Shown: positions 3,519 to 52,286, numbered from the stretch's first letter. The stretch is 64,000 nucleotides of DNA from a virus (IMGVR_UViG_3300022719_000071:192001-256000); one strand, 5' to 3'. Numbers and translations: made by a program. Notes: generated by a model from the letters alone, not told the origin.

Positions 3519-5105
3519 ATGGATAGGGAAGATTTCATTAGGCAACATCAGACGTGGCACAGCGGTGAATGTGGCAAGTATGATTATGCTACTACGGTAT
3601 ACCATGATTCGAAGACCAAATTGTCGATACGTTGCAAGATCCATGATATTGAGTATTGGAAGAAGCCTCATGATCATTTTCGCCAGGATTGTCCAGAGTG
3701 TTCCAGGAAACGGAAGGGTGAGAGAATAAGTGCAGCCAAAACCGGTAAACCTGGACACAATAGGGGTATTCCGTGTAGTGAGGAACAGAAAGAAAAACTT
3801 CGTAGTAAGGCTAAATTGCGTTATGCCGATTCTACAAATCATCCAATGTGGGGACGCCACCACACCGAAAAGACTAAAAAGCTAATAGCTGATGCATCTT
3901 CGAAAGCCAGAGGCACCGAAATGGCCACGGAAAGGACTAAGCAAGGGTTGGAAACCCGGCGACAGCGTGGTGATGATCTTGCTTTTTTCAGAGGTAAACA
4001 GCACAGCAACAGATCTAAGGAGTTGATTAGCAGAAGAAGTAAAACGTCATGGACTCTGAAAAGAATCGAACATCAAAAAGAGTATAAGAAATATGCGACA
4101 CTGGCTAATTTAGATGTTTTACGTTTCATTGATGATTGGCGACTTGAAGTATGTTGTAAGACTTGTGGTTACCATTTCGTACGCACTAGGCAATGTTTTA
4201 CAGAATCAAAATTCCGTGCCGATATGTGTCCACAATGTCATCCCAGGATTATCAAACATAGTAAAGCAGAAATAGAAATCATAGATCATATACGTTCTAT
4301 TGGCGTTACTGCATATCTTGGAGATCGACGGGTTATTTTCCCACTCGAACTAGATATAGTAGTGCCTGATTATAAATTGGCTATTGAATATTGCGGATTG
4401 TATTGGCACGGAGAAGGACAGGGTAAGGGGCGTGACTATCACCTTACTAAGATGCGATTGTGCGAAGAGAAAGGATATCGCTTAATTACAATCTTTGAAG
4501 ATGAATGGTATGAACGAAAATATGTGGTAATGAATAGAATTGCTGTTCTATTAAATAAATGCCAGAATCGTTCATACGCTCGAAAGTTGAATATTCAAGA
4601 AATTTCAACTACTGATGCCAAATCGTTTTGTGAAACTCACCACTTGCAGGGATACACCAAATCATCGATAAAGTTGGGACTTTTTGATGAACACGTTTTG
4701 AAAAGTGTTATGACGTTTTCTCATCCATCTATAGCCAAAGGAGGACGTAATCAAACGTATTGGGAAATGGCTAGATATTGCACTGATGGTTCGTTGGTAG
4801 TTGGTGGTGCAAGCCGTTTATTGCATAAATTCATTACTGACCAAAACCCTCAAACTATAGTATCGTTTGCAGATAGGAGATGGTCCAATGGTCACTTATA
4901 CGAAACACTAGGTTTCGAATTGGTTGGTGCAACACCACCCAATTACTGGTATGTAAGTGGTGCGACAAGAATTCATCGATTTACATTTCGAAAGGGAATC
5001 GTACCGGGTGATGATCATAGACTAACCGAATGGGAGAATAGGCAGGCTCAGGGACTCGACCGTATATGGGATTGTGGTAATCTGAAGTTCGTCAGAAACT
5101 TATAA
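3519..5105 (+). mobile_element. Hef-like free-standing homing endonuclease (Zn-finger/NUMOD3-like repeats + Vsr/PD-(D/E)XK-like nuclease + GNAT-like C-terminal domain)
   Basis: CxxC motifs, NPMWGRHHTEKTK (NUMOD3-like), ELDIVVPDYKLAIEYCGLYWH, ITIFEDEW, HHLQG, FADRRWSNG..Y, IWDCGN; AT-rich relative to flanks. Confidence 0.8.
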
Positions 5106-7634: not shown

Positions 7635-8206
7635 TGCTAGTATTACTTCGTCACGGTGAATCGGTCGCCAATACAGAGAACCGTAAATCGGGACAATTGA
7701 ATACGCCCCTTTCTAAGCTTGGGAAGGAGCAGAGTCTTGATGTCCGTGAAACGTACCGTGGATATAAGTGGGACGCTATATTTTCATCTGACCTTGAGCG
7801 CTGCCAGGATACGCTCAGAATCGTTCTAGGGGATGAGTATCCACCAGAGTCCTGGGTGCTCGTGGAAGAGCTTAGGGAGCGTTCTGGAGGCGTTTTGGAG
7901 GGCATGAAGTACTCTGAAATGCGTAAGATACTCCCACCCAAGAAATACAAGCTATGGCAACGGGATTACTTTGAAGCACCGCCCATGGGTGAATCCATGA
8001 AAGACGTTGAGGAGCGTGCGGTTCCGTATGCAAAGGAGTACATATTTCCATTGGTGAACGAAGGAAAGAATGTGATGGTTTGCACCCACTATGTGGTGAT
8101 GCAGGTTTTAATTGGTTACATCAAGGGGACAAGCGAGGAAAACATTCCTTCGTTGAAGATTGAACATGCAATGCCATATGTTACCTATGGCAAAGTTCGT
8201 ACTTAA
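7634..8206 (+). CDS. Histidine phosphatase / phosphoglycerate mutase family protein
   Basis: LLRHGES (RHG motif), SSDLERC, ELRERSGG, VCTH. Confidence 0.88.
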   Translation: MLVLLRHGESVANTENRKSGQLNTPLSKLGKEQSLDVRETYRGYKWDAIFSSDLERCQDTLRIVLGDEYPPESWVLVEELRERSGGVLEGMKYSEMRKILPPKKYKLWQRDYFEAPPMGESMKDVEERAVPYAKEYIFPLVNEGKNVMVCTHYVVMQVLIGYIKGTSEENIPSLKIEHAMPYVTYGKVRT

Positions 8207-9651
8207 TACTGCTTTTCAAATACCAGATTTCCGCAATCCCAAATCCTGTCATATCCTTGCAGTTTTCTGTTTTCCCATTCTGTCAGTTTGGGATCATCAG
8301 TCGGGATATTACCCTTTCGTAACGCAAATCTATGGATACGAAACTGTTTATCGATATACCAATAATTAGGTGCTGAAGTTCTGACTAGTGACATGCCCAT
8401 CTTGTGATACAGATTACCGGTAGACCAACGCAAATCGCAATATGAAATAACCTTGTTGGGTCGTAAGTTAGTTGCGAAATGATTAAGTAGTTTGGATGCG
8501 CCACCAACAACTATAATGGAAGACGCAAAACGGTTGATTTCATATATACCTTCACTATTTCCTCTGGAACCTTTGGAAATGTTAGGCTTAGAGAAAGTCA
8601 TGACCGATACCAATTCACCGCCGTGATATAACCCATACCGGTATTTGCATCCTGAATATCCTTGTAGATGATGGATATCAAGAAATTGCTTGGCAACTTC
8701 CTTGGTAATTTCTCTGATTTGACATTTCCTAGCATAAATCTTGTTATTGGTATTAGTCAGAATATGATTAAGTCTCCGTTTCACGATCTCGGTTTTGTTG
8801 ATCCATTCATCTTCGAAAATAGTGATCAAGCGAACTCCTGCTTCTCCACAAAGCTTCAGCTTGTTTATATGGTAATTTCTGGTCTTTTTACCAAAGGTTT
8901 CAGAATGCCATCTCAATCCACAATATTCTATGGCTGTGAATAATTCTGGAACATAGATATCCAGTTCATAAGGAGGAATTATTTCACGATGATTTTCAAA
9001 ACAGGTTAGTCCTAATGATCTTATCTGATTAGCTATGTCTATTTGTGGTTGTGATATTTTATTGGCACAAGCAGGGCATCCCGAACCTCTAAGATGATTT
9101 GTTGCCAACTGATGGAATACCCCATGCTTGTTACATTGTATGGTTGTTTTTGAAGAACCATTGAAGTCATCATGGGGGATATATTGATATGTATTACCAT
9201 GGACATCGTTAGCTTTGGATACGAAATCCGAATGAGAATTTGTCTGTATAAACTTCAATCTCACATGATGACATTTGGGACAGCCGTTTCCATTCAAATG
9301 ATGATACGGAAATTGCCTAAAATTTCCATGAATTTTACACCTAATAATAACCTTTTTATTACTATTCTCATACTTTACTTTGGAGTAATCATAGCCATCA
9401 TGCAATTTTCTAGCCCGGTTGACAAATTCCTCCGTAGTTAATTTTCTATTCCCGGTACACGATGAACATTGTTTTCCGTCTAAATGATGCCGTGCCCGTT
9501 GCTCAAAATCTCCGTGCAATGGACAGGTTATGGTAATAAGAGCATGCGCCCCACGATAAATAGATTTGTCATAAGAATATTTGTCACCATGCATGGCAAT
9601 AGCTTCTTCGATGAATTGTTCAGTAGTTTTCTTCTTCATGCTAATGTTCAA
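8203..9651 (-). mobile_element. Hef-like homing endonuclease, second copy (DUF723-like Zn repeats + nuclease + GNAT-like domain)
   Basis: Repeated H.D.Y.Y.K..Y......I.C..HG.F.Q....H..G..C..C units; ELDIYVPELFTAIEYCGLRWH; ITIFEDEW; IWDCGN; AT-rich. Confidence 0.8.
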
Positions 9652-45772: not shown

Positions 45773-45809
45773 CTTGAAAAAGTTGCTTTGAGTGCCCTAT
45801 CTTACGAAC

Positions 45810-46808
45810 ATGAAGTTTTGTATCATAGACGCTAGCAATCTTGTTCATAGAGCCAAACACGTTATATCAAAGTATGATTCCTTTGATGAGTGTGTAGGCT
45901 TGACGCTGACTATTGTCTTCAACTCGATGAAGAAATCCTACGAGAAGTTTGGTGCAGAGCATTGCGTAGCTTGTTTCGACTCTTCCTCCTGGCGTAAAGA
46001 AATCTACCCCGAGTACAAGGGAGACCGTGTAGCAAAAGAGAAGTCTCCTATCAAAAAGGAGGAAGATGAAATCATCTGGCAGGTGCTTAGTGATCTACGA
46101 AAGTTCCTGGATGAATTCACCAATGTCACCGTTCTACATGAGCGAGACATTGAGGCAGACGATTTCATTGCTCGATGGACTCAATTGCATGACGACGAAT
46201 CATTCGAGCACATTATCATTTCCGGTGATGGAGACTTCAAGCAACTAGTGCGACCCGGTGTAGAGTTGTATGATCCCATTCGTAACTTTCTGTATACTGC
46301 TGATGGTATATTCTATCAAGATGGAAAAAAGCCACGCAAAGAACAGCCAGTAGCACAGAAACACGGTGAAACTTGGAAAGTCAAGCTTACCAAAGATGGT
46401 GACCCGGAGACATTCGAACCAGAGTGGGAACTGTTTCAGCTTTGCATTCGTGGTAAGAAAAACAACTTACGAACCGCATATCCTCGTGTACGCACGAACA
46501 AGATGCGAGAAGCTTACGATGATCGTGGTGGCCCGAAGTGGAATGATTTCATTAATACTATTTGGGGTCCGGAAGATAATCGTCAACGAGTTCGTGATAG
46601 ATATGAAGAAAACCGGTTGTTGATCGATTTGCGACGACAGCCTGACGAAATCAAGTTCGTGATGGATGAAACCATCAATGCCTCTTTGGAGAAAGATGCC
46701 AAGACTATGGTGGGCGCATACTTCGCTCGTTTCTGTGGCAAATACAAGCTTCGGAAACTGGTCGATCAAGCGTCTGCCATTACCCAATTGCTATCTGCGC
46801 CCTATTGA
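45810..46808 (+). CDS. rnh: RNase H / 5'-3' flap exonuclease (T4 rnh-like)
   Basis: IIDASNL.HR, ACFD..SWRKEIYPEYKG.R, EADDFIA, ISGDGDFKQL; alternative GTG start at 45792. Confidence 0.88.
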   Translation: MKFCIIDASNLVHRAKHVISKYDSFDECVGLTLTIVFNSMKKSYEKFGAEHCVACFDSSSWRKEIYPEYKGDRVAKEKSPIKKEEDEIIWQVLSDLRKFLDEFTNVTVLHERDIEADDFIARWTQLHDDESFEHIIISGDGDFKQLVRPGVELYDPIRNFLYTADGIFYQDGKKPRKEQPVAQKHGETWKVKLTKDGDPETFEPEWELFQLCIRGKKNNLRTAYPRVRTNKMREAYDDRGGPKWNDFINTIWGPEDNRQRVRDRYEENRLLIDLRRQPDEIKFVMDETINASLEKDAKTMVGAYFARFCGKYKLRKLVDQASAITQLLSAPY

Positions 46809-46850
46809 TTCCCACGTCTCGATGTATATAATAGCGGTTCGTCAGGAGAG
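46805..46850 (+). promoter_or_regulatory. Sigma70-like promoter and strong RBS of the original topoisomerase 5' end
   Basis: TTGATT-N16-TATAAT (46805-46832) and AGGAGAG (46844-46850) before the ATG at 46859. Confidence 0.55.
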
Positions 46851-46858
46851 AACCGTTC

Positions 46859-47009
46859 ATGGCAAAGGTACAAGAAACATACAAGAAGCTGGATGATTAC
46901 CAGCATGCACGCCTTCGTACAGAAATGTACCTTGGATCTCGTGAACCTCACACAGTCCTTACCTCACTTTGACGGTGAGGTATTAGGTATGCGTGAGTTT
47001 ACCTGGGTA
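46859..47009 (+). pseudogene. Frameshifted relic of the topoisomerase large-subunit N-terminus
   Basis: MAKVQETYKKLDDYQHARLRTEMYLGSREPHT, then a 2-nt deletion, then HFDGEVLGMREFTWV; aligns to KKLNDYEHTRLRTELYFGSRELHTQNILHFDGKQLSLREFTWV at 48691. In-frame TGA at 46970. Confidence 0.88.
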
Positions 47010-47019
47010 TCGGCGGCTA

Positions 47020-48690
47020 TCACACAGCTACTTGCATCTCCGTATTGAAATTTAGAACCCACACGGAATTTCCGCAATCCCATATTCTATGGTATCCCCG
47101 TTGTTGCATGATTTCTCTTTCGGTTAAAGAAGAATCATAACCATCTTTGCACAGTTTATGTTTTTGATATTTGATACGAGATTCTCTATTCAGTGGGTAC
47201 GTTGATACGTACCAATAAGCAGGTTTGCTGTGATGACTTAATGTAAATCCCAAACTTTGATAAAGATCTCCATCAGACCATCTTCTATCTGCATAAGATA
47301 CAATAGAAGATCCTGGAAATTTTTTTGTAACTTGCGATAGTAGTTTCCCTGCGCTTCCGACAACGGATGTATTAATCTTATTACAAAATCGAATCATTTC
47401 CAGATCATACTTCTTTGAAAATCTTGGTTTACAAAATGTCATAACGGAAACCAATTCATCATTCTTCCATAGTCCATAATTGATTGACGACGGATGTTCT
47501 CCCTGTAGATGATTGTCGTTCATGAATTTAGCAGCTAGTGGGTATGATATGGATTCAACACGGCAGTTTCTAGCGAATACCTTATCTGTAGTTTGTTTTA
47601 GTAAATGACTAATTTTTGACTTTACTATAGAACTCTTGTATCTCCATTCGTCTTCAAATATTGTTAACAACCTGACGTTTTGTTTTTTACATTGAAGTAA
47701 CTTATCAATATGATAATTGCTATCACAGAATCCTTCGGAATGCCAATACAACCCACACACTTCCAAAGCTAAATTATGCTTAGGAACGAAAATATCTAAT
47801 TCCTTGGGAGCAATTATTCCTCGATTACTTCGCTGGATACTAACACCCAACTGTGTGATGAAATCACCTATTTCTAATTCTGGTTTGGAAATTAATGTTC
47901 GGCACCTGGGACAACCGACTCCACGAAGATTAGCATTTGGTATCTGCCAAAATGCACCGTGCACGGGACATACAATCACGCCCTTTTGCTTACTTCCAGT
48001 ATACACAAAACGGGAATAATCATACGTCGGGTGGATTTCACCCGCTTCCTCCACGAAGTCTTCAGTGCTTTTTAGTCTACCCTTTCTATCTACACATTTA
48101 GCGCATCCACTTCCGTTTTTGTGGTCATTGGCTATTTGCCAAAATACACCATGCTCGGGGCATACTATTTGTATTTTTTCGGATACACCCCTGTAGTTCA
48201 CTAACGAATAATCATATTTTCCATCATGAATATCCGCACATCTGGACAAGAATTCCTTTTCATGCAACAACAAAGATTTAGATGATTTTTGCAAACCACA
48301 TTTATTGCATCCTTTCCCGCTCAGATGAACATATGCACGTTGTTTGAATAACCCATGCGTTGGACACTTGATAATGACCATATCTCTCGATTTGGTATAA
48401 TCAACCAAGGAATAATCGTAAAACAGTCCATGTTTAGAACGTGCTCGCCTAATGAATTCGTCAGTGCTGAGCATTAGTGATTTTGTGGTGTTTTCTCTCC
48501 CACAGTCAGGACACCCCTGATTTCTATACAAATGATTCTTCGGAGTCTGCTTGAAACTTCCGTGCTTTTGGCATATAATAGATATCGGAATATTTTTCCC
48601 CATGTAATCAGAATTGGAATAATCATACTTCATGCCGTGCGTCTTTACCGCACGAACAATAAATTCTTCAGTAGTGAGATTTTTAGGCAT
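47020..48690 (-). mobile_element. Hef-like homing endonuclease, third copy, inserted in the topoisomerase 5' region
   Basis: Four DUF723-like Zn repeats, ELDIFVPKHNLALEVCGLYWH, LTIFEDEW, YADRRWSDG.LY, IWDCGN; strongly AT-rich. Confidence 0.82.
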
Positions 48691-50586
48691 ATGGCAGACA
48701 CACTCAAAAAACTAAATGATTACGAACACACAAGACTTAGAACAGAATTATACTTTGGTTCTAGAGAACTTCATACTCAAAATATACTCCATTTTGATGG
48801 AAAGCAACTTTCATTGCGTGAGTTCACATGGGTTCCTGCATTATTTACAGGGATTAGAGAAATAATCGATAATGCTCTCGATGAAATGGTTGGGCATCGC
48901 AAGGGTGACACACTGCGTGTTACCTATGACGAGTCCACCATGGAGATTTCCGTTGAAGACAATGGCCGTGGTCTACCAATCGATGAGCGCAAGGATTTAG
49001 GCAAAGGTCCAGCCGCATCCATTCTCCTGGGAGAAGCCCGAGCAGGACGTAACTTCGATGAGCGTGGTCAAGTAGCCGGTACCAATGGTCTTGGTGCTGC
49101 CTGCACCAACTTTACCGCTGAATGGTTTGAGCTTGATGTGTATCACGGCTCAAAGCGTTTAAAGCAACGTTGGGAGGAAGGCACGTACGGTGGTAAGGAC
49201 AAGCACCGAACCAAAGGACCAAATGTCATTCGGGGCTCTAAGGCTAAGAGCGGAACTAAGATTACCTACAAGCCTTCTGCAAAGGTATTCAAGCATTTGT
49301 TGCTCCCAACCGATTTTATCAAAGGTCGTCTGTGGGACATCGCAGTGTCCAATCCCAAGATCAAGGTCTACTTCAATGATGAGCGTCTGACTCCATTACC
49401 CGGACGTGATGCAGTTGCCGCCACGTATTTTAAAGATCAAGCCATCAGCAAGATTTCCTTTGAGGACGGCAACTTCAACAGCCACTTCTATCTGCTGCCA
49501 GACTTCAATGGCGACGAAGAAGTTGTACATTCGGTGGTAAACAACCTACCTGCACTACAAGGCGGCTCGCACATCGATGCGTTCCGCAACCTGTTCTATC
49601 CGTCTGCAATGAGTCATTTAACCAGCACACGTGGCAATGCCTTCACCAAGGAAAAACTGACGTTAACCCGTCCTGATATTGCTACTGGCTTGCTCATCTT
49701 CAACGTCACTACTATGGATGGGCCTAACTTTGACTCACAGACAAAAAGTCGTTTGATTACCGAAGTCCGTGGAACCATGAAGGCATGCTTCGATGAGTTC
49801 CAGGTCGGATCTGCGTTTCGTAGGAACTCTGCATGGGTGGAGTTGATCCTGGAGCGTTGCCGTCGAAGGACTGTGAGCAAAGAGACCCGTGAGATCAGCC
49901 GTGAGCAGAGGAAGATGCAACGAAGCAAGGTTGCCAAGCTCCGTGATGCAACGGGGAACCGTCGCTCGAAATGTACGCTATTCATCGGTGAGGGCGATTC
50001 TGCTCTGAACAACATGTTCACTGTGCGTGATCCAAATTTACATGGTGCACTGCCGTTGCGTGGCAAGATTTTGAATGTGCATGGCATTTCACCGAAGAAG
50101 GTCATTGAGAGTCAAGCACTTGCTGACATTATGACAAGCATAGGTTTGCAAATCGGCACAAAAGCAAACCGACCCAACCTTCGATACGGGAAAGTGTACA
50201 TTGCTACTGACGAAGATGAGGATGGTAAGAACATCACCGCATTGCTGGTGAACTTCTTCTTCCGCTTCTGGCCGGAACTATTTGAGGGAGAACCATTTGT
50301 CTACAAATTCTCTACCCCGTTCATCATTGTGGAGAAGGGCAAGCAGCGAAAGTACATCTATGCAGACGCATACGATGAGTTCCAGACTAACCTGGAGAAG
50401 TATAAGGGGTGGGCTATCACCAGGGCTAAGGGTCTAGGCACTCTTACTCTGGAGGATTGGGCACATGCACTGGAGAAACCACAGGTCATACCGGTGATCA
50501 ACGATGGTCACCTGAAAGAGACGTTGGATCTGATCTTCAACCAGGATAGAGCCGATGATCGCAAGGAGTGGTTGAGTCATGACTAA
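48691..50586 (+). CDS. gyrB: Type II topoisomerase large subunit (GyrB/ParE-like, gp39+gp60 fused)
   Basis: EIIDNALDE, EDNGRG.P, AGRNF, GTNGLG (GHKL); FIGEGDSA, PLRGKILN, IATDEDEDG (Toprim), RAKGLG. Confidence 0.95.
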   Translation: MADTLKKLNDYEHTRLRTELYFGSRELHTQNILHFDGKQLSLREFTWVPALFTGIREIIDNALDEMVGHRKGDTLRVTYDESTMEISVEDNGRGLPIDERKDLGKGPAASILLGEARAGRNFDERGQVAGTNGLGAACTNFTAEWFELDVYHGSKRLKQRWEEGTYGGKDKHRTKGPNVIRGSKAKSGTKITYKPSAKVFKHLLLPTDFIKGRLWDIAVSNPKIKVYFNDERLTPLPGRDAVAATYFKDQAISKISFEDGNFNSHFYLLPDFNGDEEVVHSVVNNLPALQGGSHIDAFRNLFYPSAMSHLTSTRGNAFTKEKLTLTRPDIATGLLIFNVTTMDGPNFDSQTKSRLITEVRGTMKACFDEFQVGSAFRRNSAWVELILERCRRRTVSKETREISREQRKMQRSKVAKLRDATGNRRSKCTLFIGEGDSALNNMFTVRDPNLHGALPLRGKILNVHGISPKKVIESQALADIMTSIGLQIGTKANRPNLRYGKVYIATDEDEDGKNITALLVNFFFRFWPELFEGEPFVYKFSTPFIIVEKGKQRKYIYADAYDEFQTNLEKYKGWAITRAKGLGTLTLEDWAHALEKPQVIPVINDGHLKETLDLIFNQDRADDRKEWLSHD

Positions 50587-50953
50587 TAAGAAGCAAGTAC
50601 CAGCAGCGGTACATTTCCAAACGACGGGCCAGCTACAGCCAATCGATTACAACTGGCTGCACATTCTGCACGTATGTCGTGAGGCATTGCAACAGGAGAA
50701 GCAATATGTTATTCTGCCTGTCGAAGAGAAGCAGAATGACAAGCGCAACAAGATGCGGCTGGTGAAGGGAGATAAGAACAGCCCTCGTGGGTTGGTGATG
50801 AAGACCGACCGTGAGGCATTGCAACGATACTATCCGTATGCTGCCGTTCGTTTGGATGCCGAGGAATTGTCTACCTACGCTGCCAAGAGATTCAATGAGC
50901 TTGATCCAGCAGAACTGGAAAGGATGGCAAGTGAGCTTACCCAGCAGAGCTAG
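50579..50953 (+). CDS. Hypothetical protein between the topoisomerase subunits
   Basis: 124-aa ORF overlapping both neighbours; GGAG RBS. Confidence 0.6.
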   Translation: MTNKKQVPAAVHFQTTGQLQPIDYNWLHILHVCREALQQEKQYVILPVEEKQNDKRNKMRLVKGDKNSPRGLVMKTDREALQRYYPYAAVRLDAEELSTYAAKRFNELDPAELERMASELTQQS

Positions 50954-52286
50954 TTCCGACTACATTAGTCGCATCTCACGGGAGTACGGTCTGTATGTTT
51001 TGGACAGTCGTGCTATCCCAGCGATGACTGATGGTCTTAAGACGAGCCAACGCATCGCTTTGTGGCTAGTGAGAAACCGAGCCGACAAGATCAAGACTAT
51101 CTCGCTCGTGGGTGAGATGATTGCCTCCAACCTGTATGTCCATGGTGACGCTGCGGCTGGTGATACTATCAGTCTCCTGGCGGCTCCGTACTGCAACAAC
51201 GTCCCCTTGCTCGGTAGTGTGGGTGCCTTTGGTACGTTGGCTGACCCAACGAGCTTTGGTGCCCCTCGCTATACCTACGTGAAGCGCTCCAAGTTTGCTC
51301 AGGACGCCTTGTATACCGATATAGACATCGTGCCAATGGTGGAAAACTACGACGGCTCTGCGAGGATGCCGGGTACGTTCCTGCCTCTGATACCCCTGGT
51401 ACTATTGAATGGCATCAAAGGTATCGCCCCTGGTTGGTCTACCAATATCCTCCCACGTCGATTGGAAGATCTGATACGTGCCGTGCAGGAGGTTCTTAGT
51501 GATGGCAAGGTCAAGACCAAGATTATGCCCCACTACGAGGGTCGCAATGTTCGAGTGGTCGAGCGTGGAGACAATCAATATACACTATTCGGACACCTGA
51601 CCAAGAAAAACACCACGACCGTGATTGTGGACAGTCTTCCGCCCGACTTGACGCTGGAGAAGTTTAAGGAATATCTCATCAAGCTGGAAGAGGATGGTAA
51701 GATCACGGATTGGATTGACCATAGCTCGAAGACTATCTACATCGAAATTAAGATGCGTCGTGCTGACCTCGTTCCCATGGAAGAGGCAGATATCATTGAG
51801 TTCCTTCGTTTGCGCACTCTGGTAACAGAGAATATTACCGTACAAGGCATCGGTGGTAACAAGGTTGTGACCTATGAGTCTGCTGATAAGTTGGTTGAGG
51901 ATTGGGTGAAGTGGAGGCTTGAACTGTACCTTGAAAGGTACAACAAACTTCTTGAGGACGAGTGTTATACAAACTTGTATTGGAAGTTGGTGATTGCGTG
52001 CTTCGACCACGAACTTGTTAATGATCTTCTCAAACTGAAGGGTAAGACCGAGCTAAAGAATCGGGTTTTGGAGATCGCAAATGCGGACAAGCTCGATGGT
52101 GTCACTGACGATATTCTGGAACGAATTGCTAATCTACCGTCATACCGATGGACGGTAGAGGGGTATGACGAAGCGAAGAAGCAACTCGAAGCCAGTTCTC
52201 AACGTGTTGTGGAATATGACAGCATGGTCAGTAGCAATGTCAAGCGCAAGAATGTTTTCAAGAAAGAAGTCGGTGCTCTAGCTTAA
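50931..52286 (+). CDS. gyrA: Type II topoisomerase small subunit (GyrA/ParC, gp52-like)
   Basis: RAIP..DGLK.SQR, YVHGD, APRYT (catalytic Tyr), LNGIKGIAPGWST; GTG start with AAAGGA RBS. Confidence 0.93.
   Translation: MSLPSRASSDYISRISREYGLYVLDSRAIPAMTDGLKTSQRIALWLVRNRADKIKTISLVGEMIASNLYVHGDAAAGDTISLLAAPYCNNVPLLGSVGAFGTLADPTSFGAPRYTYVKRSKFAQDALYTDIDIVPMVENYDGSARMPGTFLPLIPLVLLNGIKGIAPGWSTNILPRRLEDLIRAVQEVLSDGKVKTKIMPHYEGRNVRVVERGDNQYTLFGHLTKKNTTTVIVDSLPPDLTLEKFKEYLIKLEEDGKITDWIDHSSKTIYIEIKMRRADLVPMEEADIIEFLRLRTLVTENITVQGIGGNKVVTYESADKLVEDWVKWRLELYLERYNKLLEDECYTNLYWKLVIACFDHELVNDLLKLKGKTELKNRVLEIANADKLDGVTDDILERIANLPSYRWTVEGYDEAKKQLEASSQRVVEYDSMVSSNVKRKNVFKKEVGALA

Follow-up and report, generated by a model that had tools for sequence, protein, structure and literature searches.

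A Hef-like homing endonuclease gene flanked by two diverged 5′ ends of a phage topoisomerase gene

How can a selfish gene come to lie inside the former reading frame of an essential enzyme while that enzyme still reads through? The question is raised by a 64,000-nucleotide (nt) stretch of viral DNA (IMGVR_UViG_3300022719_000071:192001-256000), here called the window, by which the whole stretch is meant; it comprises bases 192001-256000 of a 360,469-bp IMG/VR jumbo-phage record (G000:C1). In this window, a gene for the large subunit of a type II topoisomerase (GyrB-like; topo) is preceded on the opposite strand by a Hef-like homing endonuclease gene (HEG), and on the far side of the HEG the first ~50 topo codons are present a second time. 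Read along the plus strand, the order is a resident 5′-3′ exonuclease gene (exo), a spacer of 50 nt, the upstream topo start (copy 1), a short tail of a second exo gene, the antisense HEG, and the downstream topo start (copy 2), which continues in register into the body of the gene (Table 1). Two things have to be settled, namely which of the two starts is the original, and how an endonuclease gene came to stand between them. The explanation that we favor, with a probability of roughly 0.78, is homing of a free-standing Hef-like HEG from a diverged relative by one-sided repair of a double-strand break, in which the right join was homologous and the left one illegitimate.

Copy 1 and copy 2 can be aligned in two frames, with 65.5% identity over 29 amino acids (aa; E = 1.6 × 10−9) and 55.6% over 27 aa (E = 1.4 × 10−6), because copy 1 of the window is frameshifted: it has 10 nt between its HT and HF codons where copy 2 has 12, and encounters a stop codon at 46970-46972. 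In a six-frame translation of the 360-kb genome, the motifs REFTWV and LRTE.Y.GSRE occur only at these two places. The copies agree at 20/43 third codon positions, and the start of the copy-2 type reads MADTLKKLNDYEH. An initial annotation of the window had claimed that the topo start exists twice around a HEG (termed Hef-3), that the upstream copy keeps the promoter and a strong ribosome-binding site (RBS), and that it ends at EFTWV, 10 nt from the HEG stop codon. All of this is confirmed. Upstream of copy 1, a TTGATT-16-TATAAT element is followed by AGGAGA, 9 nt ahead of the ATG, and a similar TATAAT box and GGAG-type RBS are found in the exo-topo spacers of the related contigs L031, L029 and L027; EFTWV ends at 47009 and the HEG stop codon occupies 47020-47022, leaving the gap of 10 nt. 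The further claim that topo remains unsplit, in contrast to genes 39 and 60 of T4, also holds: the full gene (48691-50586) is a single 631-aa open reading frame (ORF) with all four Pfam domains (HATPase_c, DNA_gyraseB, Toprim and TOPRIM_C).

Relatives that were first found through the copy-2 N terminus gave a protein tree that was unresolved without the closest relative (approximately unbiased (AU) test, P = 0.11, 0.07 and 0.065). A search with the topo body by itself yielded this closest relative, P0192 (contig L031), which is 84% identical in the body at the aa level and, at 634 aa, three residues longer than the working topoisomerase of the window, a length that agrees with a start of the copy-1 type. 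On L031, exo is followed by a 53-nt spacer and then by topo, and there is no HEG; nor is a HEG found at the exo-topo locus of L029, L032/L033, L034, L009, L027 or L030, so that the locus is polymorphic for HEG presence or absence among related genomes. After addition to copy 1 of a CA dinucleotide that is present in sister strains (see below), copy 1 matches L031 at 130/150 nt (86.7%) and 44/50 aa (88%), versus 82/126 nt (65%) and 31/42 aa for copy 2. Third positions identical to L031 number 32/42 in copy 1 and 15/42 in copy 2 (Fisher P = 3.7 × 10−4). Copy 1 and P0192 are sisters in the tree (support 97/92). Where the eight nearest relatives all share one residue, copy 1 differs from it in 0/28 cases and copy 2 in 4/28, and the complete foreign segment departs at 6/43 residues invariant in the near clade versus 15/298 for the body (P = 0.036). 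The AU test is indecisive even with P0192 added, a grouping of copy 1 with copy 2 also being kept (P = 0.42), and the decision on residency therefore rests on DNA identity, third positions and composition. Judged by these, copy 1 is the resident original and copy 2 is foreign. The closest uninterrupted relative thus sides with copy 1, as the initial annotation had anticipated in supposing that copy 2 arrived with the HEG.

The composition of the locus tells the same two parts apart. Copy 2 (36% GC) resembles the HEG (38%), whereas copy 1 (46%) is closer to the remainder of topo (49.5%). The maximum-likelihood change point of GC is 48874, that of GC at third codon positions is codon 65 (48886; 0.23 versus 0.55, log-likelihood ratio 12.4), and AGA makes up 4/5 of the arginine codons before the latter point and 1/41 after it. 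The AT-rich, AGA-rich and HEG-like character that had been ascribed to copy 2 until about 48880 is thereby borne out, with the change at about 48874-48892, and the foreign tract extends 35-50 nt past the duplicated part. The right join lies in register and is therefore homologous, and the ATPase N-box block in which it falls is a natural place for a homologous crossover. A 26-nt run of GHKL N-box codons, ATCGATAATGCTCTCGATGAAATGGT, is identical in the window (48865-48890) and in L029 (approximately 4177-4202), in DNA that is otherwise ~60% identical; such identical blocks may be preferred crossover points or endonuclease targets. Identity to L031 does not place the right junction more precisely, since the body is only 74% identical and a variable stretch comes after the N-box.

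The left side holds a second duplication, which the initial annotation had overlooked. The 39 nt from 47010 to 47048 encode SAAITQLLASPY and a stop codon, a diverged copy of the resident exo end, ASAITQLLSAPY and stop. In the six-frame translation of the genome, AITQLL is present only at the true exo end and at this relic, followed both times by two small residues, PY and a stop codon. The relic and the resident tail are identical at 24/39 nt and differ at nearly all synonymous sites; the L031 exo tail shares 31/39 nt with the resident tail and 26/39 with the relic, and exo C termini of relatives read ASAIVQILAAPY, ASAISQLLSAPY and AAPITALLASKY, each followed by a stop codon. By its sequence, the relic appears to be the 3′ end of a diverged exonuclease orthologue (exo′) from a donor phage. 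The HEG overlaps it by 29 nt, its last ~10 codons lying inside the tail. The donor exo tail beside the HEG places the home of the HEG in the donor between exo′ and topo′, convergent with exo′ and outside any ORF; other antisense HEG paralogs in the genome overlap the 3′ end of their upstream gene by 4-14 nt, which matches such an intergenic home. The left join links topo codon 50 to the tail of an unrelated gene and is therefore illegitimate. It lies at 47009/47010, or up to ~47015 if a possible 4-nt microhomology is real (CGGC; ...TGG GTT CCG GCC in L031, taken as proxy, versus ...TGG GTA TCG GCG in the relic). The foreign topo codons 1 to ~63 and the 13 donor exo codons constitute a co-conversion tract flanking the HEG.

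Strains were compared on assembled contigs from three other samples of the same study, and contigs of all three carry the structure. Contigs of X2 span 46300-48254 and 48251-49400, a contig of X4 (46941-47089) spans the left junction, and P0001, a gene call in a database from a 43-kb contig, shares the chimeric start and also has the R76S change that marks the X2/X4 strain. All three samples have an extra CA behind 46948, which places copy 1 in frame, and copy 1 together with the donor exo tail forms an intact 63-codon ORF with its stop codon at 47046-47048; the window strain has lost one CA from the run at 46949-46954. The 2-nt deletion is (CA) slippage private to the window strain, and the frameshifted relic described in the initial annotation is hence correct for this strain but not for the three sister samples. 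Five differences separate the strains in 3.1 kb, two of them inside the 151 nt of copy 1; the numbers are small, and this clustering fits relaxed constraint on a recent relic. The event is evidently young, as the first mutation to disable the stranded ORF still segregates among the strains.

The HEG product combines four DUF723 zinc-finger repeats (Pfam, E = 8.8 × 10−16), a nuclease domain of the Vsr/EDxHD type (weak Vsr match) and a Mom-like GNAT fold. DUF723 repeats have been described as CapR-like DNA-binding modules of phage HEGs (PMC10448857), and phage Hef-type enzymes have been placed in the Vsr-like EDxHD family (PMC3239194). In a structure model with a predicted local distance difference test score (pLDDT) of 85.6, the nuclease domain superposes on the catalytic domain of I-Bth0305I (3r3p; Foldseek template-modeling score TMt 0.78, root mean squared deviation 3.3 Å, E = 7.5 × 10−4, 22% identity), and the C-terminal domain (residues ~365-556, window 47020-47800) matches Mom of phage Mu, a DNA-modification enzyme of GNAT fold (8bv8, E = 3.7 × 10−6), as well as phrog_1384, 'Mom-like'. 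Residues 550-556 score below 50; the family-conserved part ends at about residue 546-549, and the terminal residues, whose codons lie in the exo′ tail, are modeled as disordered. Every residue that is invariant among 21 homologs is kept, including the family-invariant D299, E310, H317 and K330; E297, D299, E310, H317, K330 and E346/E348 are invariant or nearly so in these homologs and present in the HEG. Homologs found by tblastn are 35-40% identical, with E values down to 10−103, and several are annotated as 'putative Hef-like homing endonuclease', which are annotators' names and not assays. NCBIfam returned no match for the HEG, hits of a sequence search of the PDB reached only E = 0.3-0.6, and Rfam showed no family at the locus at E up to 1, with no ribozyme core or intron. 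A group I intron or intein was considered and rejected, since the HEG is on the opposite strand, Rfam gives no match and copy 1 ends in a stop codon; the HEG is therefore predicted to be free-standing.

Table 1. Features of the exo-topo locus; positions are counted from the first letter of the window.
Feature	Position	Strand	Basis
Resident 5′-3′ exonuclease gene (RNase H/FEN-like)	45792-46808	+	Pfam 5_3_exonuc_N, E = 1.4 × 10−22; ends ...QASAITQLLSAPY and stop
Resident intergenic signals: TTGATT-16-TATAAT (46805-46832) and RBS AGGAGA (46844-46849)	46805-46849	+	Motif match
Copy 1, stranded resident topo 5′ end, codons 1-50	46859-47009	+	L031 match
Probable relic of donor exonuclease 3′ end, SAAITQLLASPY and stop, in frame with copy 1	47010-47048	+	AITQLL match
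Predicted free-standing Hef-like HEG, 556 aa	47020-48690	−	Pfam DUF723, phrog_559, phrog_3339
Promoter-like TTGAAA-17-TATAAT (11/12), antisense within HEG	48551-48579	+	Consensus match only
Copy 2, foreign topo segment, codons 1 to ~63	48691-48880 (duplicated part 48691-48840)	+	Composition, L031 comparison
Right homologous junction zone, IDNALDEMV codons (ATPase N-box)	48865-48892	+	Composition change points
Resident body of topoisomerase II large-subunit (GyrB-like) gene	48881-50586	+	Pfam domains; 84% aa identity to P0192

These observations can be arranged into a single repair event. The donor would have harbored the HEG, in antisense orientation, in its short exo′-topo′ spacer. The resident topo would have been broken at or near codon 50 (...EFTWV), and the right end, after resection of ~45-60 nt, would have invaded the donor at the N-box codons (IDNALDE, ~48865-48892). 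Repair synthesis would have run leftward from about codon 63 of the donor topo to its first codon, on through the HEG and into the last 39 nt of donor exo, and the new strand would have been end-joined illegitimately to the barely resected left end at 47009/47010, possibly assisted by the CGGC microhomology. The expected outcome is a chimeric topo with a foreign start and a resident body, whose start codon abuts that of the HEG, while the resident promoter, RBS and 50 codons would be left stranded and fused in frame to the donor exo tail. What the sequences show directly are the two diverged duplications, which copy is resident, the break in composition, the occurrence of the structure in several samples and the lack of a HEG at this locus in the relatives covered; from these we infer that the HEG made the break, as well as its position and the order of the repair steps.

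Several points weigh against this scenario. Cleavage by the HEG is putative, as are its target site and the presumed immunity of the new allele. The arrangement exo′-HEG-topo′ was not found in any donor: among more than 6,000 family members, no HEG homolog outside this genome exceeds 46% identity, and no N terminus like copy 2 exceeds 79%. The AU test (~65 columns) does not reject a grouping of copy 2 with P0192 (P = 0.30), so that the separate phylogeny of each copy, a check named in the initial annotation, favors residency of copy 1 in the tree topology and leaves it undecided in the test. The CGGC microhomology depends on L031 standing in for lost resident codons. Finally, AT-richness is absent from the donor exo tail (39 nt, GC 0.51), and in copy 2 it may accordingly be local and not donor-wide.

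The alternative that survives best, though we regard it as unlikely, is a purpose-built cassette in which the HEG travels with a recoded, cleavage-resistant 5′ fragment and can insert into essential ORFs without splicing. This had been the proposal of the initial annotation. The HEG does now lie inside a former ORF while the gene still reads through; AT-richness is common to the HEG and the foreign fragment and absent from the donor exo tail; the two ATGs abut, with the leader of each gene inside the other; and endonuclease ORFs of fungal mitochondria behave in this way (PMC3630166). By contrast, the donor exo tail points to an intergenic home, and the non-homologous left join, with the useless DNA that it left behind, has the look of an accident of repair and not of regular insertion. 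The paralogs speak in the same sense. About nine Hef-like HEG paralogs, 36-45% identical to this HEG, are present in the 360-kb genome (G000:C1 ~67469-69364, 115194-116645, 161039-162499, 168963-170843, 171087-172616 and 187232-188677, together with 195519-197105 and 200203-201639, which are window positions 3519-5105 and 8203-9639), several of them antisense between plus-strand genes with an upstream overlap of 4 nt in two cases and 14 nt in one, and a flank-versus-flank search found no duplicated gene end at the other eight. What stands of the earlier proposal is that the foreign start came with the HEG; a dedicated cassette is not indicated, given the exo tail and the occurrence of duplications at one paralog in nine.

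Recombination could also have been started by some other cause, with the HEG as a passenger of an illegitimate and a homologous crossover between co-infecting relatives. The product would be the same, and the sequence does not reveal what made the break. Jumbo and T4-like phages, moreover, recombine heavily. We nevertheless consider this quite improbable, as the tract is short (~1.9 kb) and centered exactly on the HEG, which is the signature of co-conversion known from seg, mob and hef genes (PMC2988022).

A further alternative concerns the fate of the stranded sequence. The 63-codon ORF might be retained because a small protein is made from it under the resident promoter and RBS, perhaps one that mimics the N-terminal arm of the topoisomerase. 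The ORF is intact in 3/4 samples, the promoter-like site and AGGAGA are retained, and there is no departure from the residues invariant in the near clade. Against this, it is frameshifted in the deepest-covered sample, whose strain assembled to 360 kb, its intactness elsewhere is equally expected of a recent event, and 2/5 of the strain differences in 3.1 kb fall within its 151 nt; retention for a function is thus distinctly doubtful. Far less probable still is a local tandem duplication of exo tail, spacer and topo start that later diverged and received the HEG in its second spacer. Such duplications are common, and both duplicated pieces are adjacent in the resident genome, but the copies share 20/43 third positions while copy 1 keeps 32/42 with L031, the AT-rich tract runs beyond the duplicated part, and a useless copy 1 of such age would be expected to have decayed, whereas three samples have it intact. 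That two strains were joined into a chimera by the metagenome assembly is refuted, because contigs of X2 and X4 bridge the junctions and P0001 shows the chimeric start with R76S. Removal of an intron or intein that would join copy 1 to the body is hardly credible, even though HEGs often reside in introns, because the antisense HEG, the Rfam result and the stop codon of copy 1 speak against splicing as set out above.

Under the homing scenario, the working topo gene has lost the resident promoter and strong RBS, and only weak purine runs are present upstream of its ATG, which directly adjoins that of the HEG (CAT/ATG). A transcript begun at the resident promoter would have to traverse copy 1 and then 1.7 kb of HEG in antisense. 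A candidate cassette-borne promoter for topo is TTGAAA-17-TATAAT, the best promoter-like site, which lies inside the HEG, 112 nt before the working topo ATG; promoter-like sites in the region are, in total, no more numerous than in shuffles. We suggest very tentatively, and with the odds against it, that the HEG and the recoded start of topo may since have become a single interlocked unit, with the leader, RBS and perhaps the promoter of topo inside the HEG and the HEG leader inside the topo coding sequence, in which the foreign start would be an immune version of the cleavage site and EFTWV (47009) the natural cut site. If this were true, loss of the HEG would cripple topoisomerase expression, an addiction-like lock, and the locus would exemplify a general way, so far undescribed, in which HEGs remodel the ends of core phage genes. 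Such a lock aside, the homing scenario supplies a predicted cut site for a Hef-type enzyme, in a family whose targets are almost entirely unmapped, and an example of an essential replication gene turned chimeric and dependent on signals inside a selfish gene. Natural products of one-sided homing are scarcely documented in phages, and this locus is unusually readable, since both relics survive and the copies can be distinguished against L031. For surveys of HEG remodeling it offers a search image (diverged gene end, endonuclease, gene), and annotators and phylogeneticists should note that the first ~63 topo codons have a history other than that of the rest.

Mobile endonuclease ORFs (mORFs) of fungal mitochondria appear to be the closest described analogue. 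As summarized in PMC3630166, citing Paquin et al. (1994), they are known from Allomyces macrogynus atp6, from atp6, atp9, cox2 and nad3 of Glomus sp., from Rhizopus atp9 and from Mortierella cox2, and in the resulting gene hybrids the foreign gene end is ~64-81% identical to the native end at the nt level (PMC3630166). As in these systems, the HEG lies between two diverged gene ends, of which the one in use is foreign and the stranded one matches the closest relative, and the host gene is functional without splicing. However, mORFs replace the 3′ end (C terminus), are usually in sense orientation and often fused in frame, encode LAGLIDADG or GIY-YIG enzymes and are mitochondrial, whereas at this locus a Vsr/EDxHD Hef-type HEG on the opposite strand has displaced the start of an essential phage gene (its 5′ end) together with its expression signals, with an extra donor exo relic. 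The locus works like the mORF hybrids but is not a member of that family.

Among phage systems, intronless homing with co-conversion of flanks is known for SegF, SegG and MobE of T4 and for Hef of phage U5, and free-standing endonucleases can cut at a distance from their own genes (PMC2988022). The present case shares with these an intergenic, free-standing HEG, putative distant cleavage in a conserved gene and co-converted flanking donor sequence. The published natural cases are clean replacements without a tandem relic; one-sided homing with illegitimate microhomology junctions has been demonstrated experimentally in T4 (Parker, Belisle and Belfort 1999, as cited in PMC2988022), whereas here a one-sided product is fixed in a wild phage population, and in an essential gene. 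A full-text literature search found no phage report of such a relic, which is not proof of absence. Genes 39 and 60 of T4 are the two separately translated parts of a topoisomerase large-subunit gene split by insertion of mobA, and in Aeh1 mobE splits nrdA (PMC2988022); there too a HEG lies within the gene of an essential enzyme that survives. Unlike 39/60, the topo gene of the window remains one 631-aa ORF, and the relic duplicates the working gene and does not complement it; the gene stays whole because its replacement start came with the HEG. I-Bth0305I resembles the HEG product in the superposable nuclease domain and in weak Pfam Vsr and phmmer similarity across the motif, but is encoded in an intron and carries NUMOD/helix-turn-helix DNA-binding elements, whereas the HEG is free-standing and has DUF723 repeats and a Mom-like domain.

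The surroundings of the locus are shared with other phages. The topoisomerase of the window is 40-50% identical to counterparts in Atu_ph07- and RaK2-like phages, and a megablast search with the 3-kb region found no match among 50,697 phage records. Exo also precedes topo in L009, L027, L029, L031 and L032-L034, directly so in L031, L029, L032/L033, L034 and L009, with a small ORF in between in L027 and L030. The spacer is a variable spot in this phage group, being 18-53 nt long and empty in L029, L031, L032-L034 and L009, and occupied by an unrelated 104-aa ORF in L027 (4337-4651) and a 71-aa ORF in L030 (3789-4004). Two genes upstream of exo, L032 (661-1638) and L033 (714-1691) have an antisense 325-aa DUF723 gene between a PD-(D/E)XK gene and a 223-aa gene; the window has no DUF723 gene at that position, which makes this a second presence/absence polymorphism of a HEG-like gene in the neighborhood.

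Within the genome, the HEG paralogs at 169 kb and 171 kb stand in tandem, and that at 161 kb, which contains an internal TAA, is probably a pseudogene. A late-type TAAATA motif on the HEG strand was considered as the HEG promoter and rejected, because at 158 nt before the ATG it is too far away. The motif occurs 147 times in the whole genome, and in 62 cases the ATG of an ORF of 100 aa or more follows it within 60 nt, which would fit its use by this phage as a late promoter of the T4 type. Downstream, a 124-aa ORF without a family match (window 50579-50953) lies between the topo large subunit and a gp52-like subunit (DNA_topoisoIV, 50811-52286), and ORFs of 120-128 aa occupy its position in relatives.

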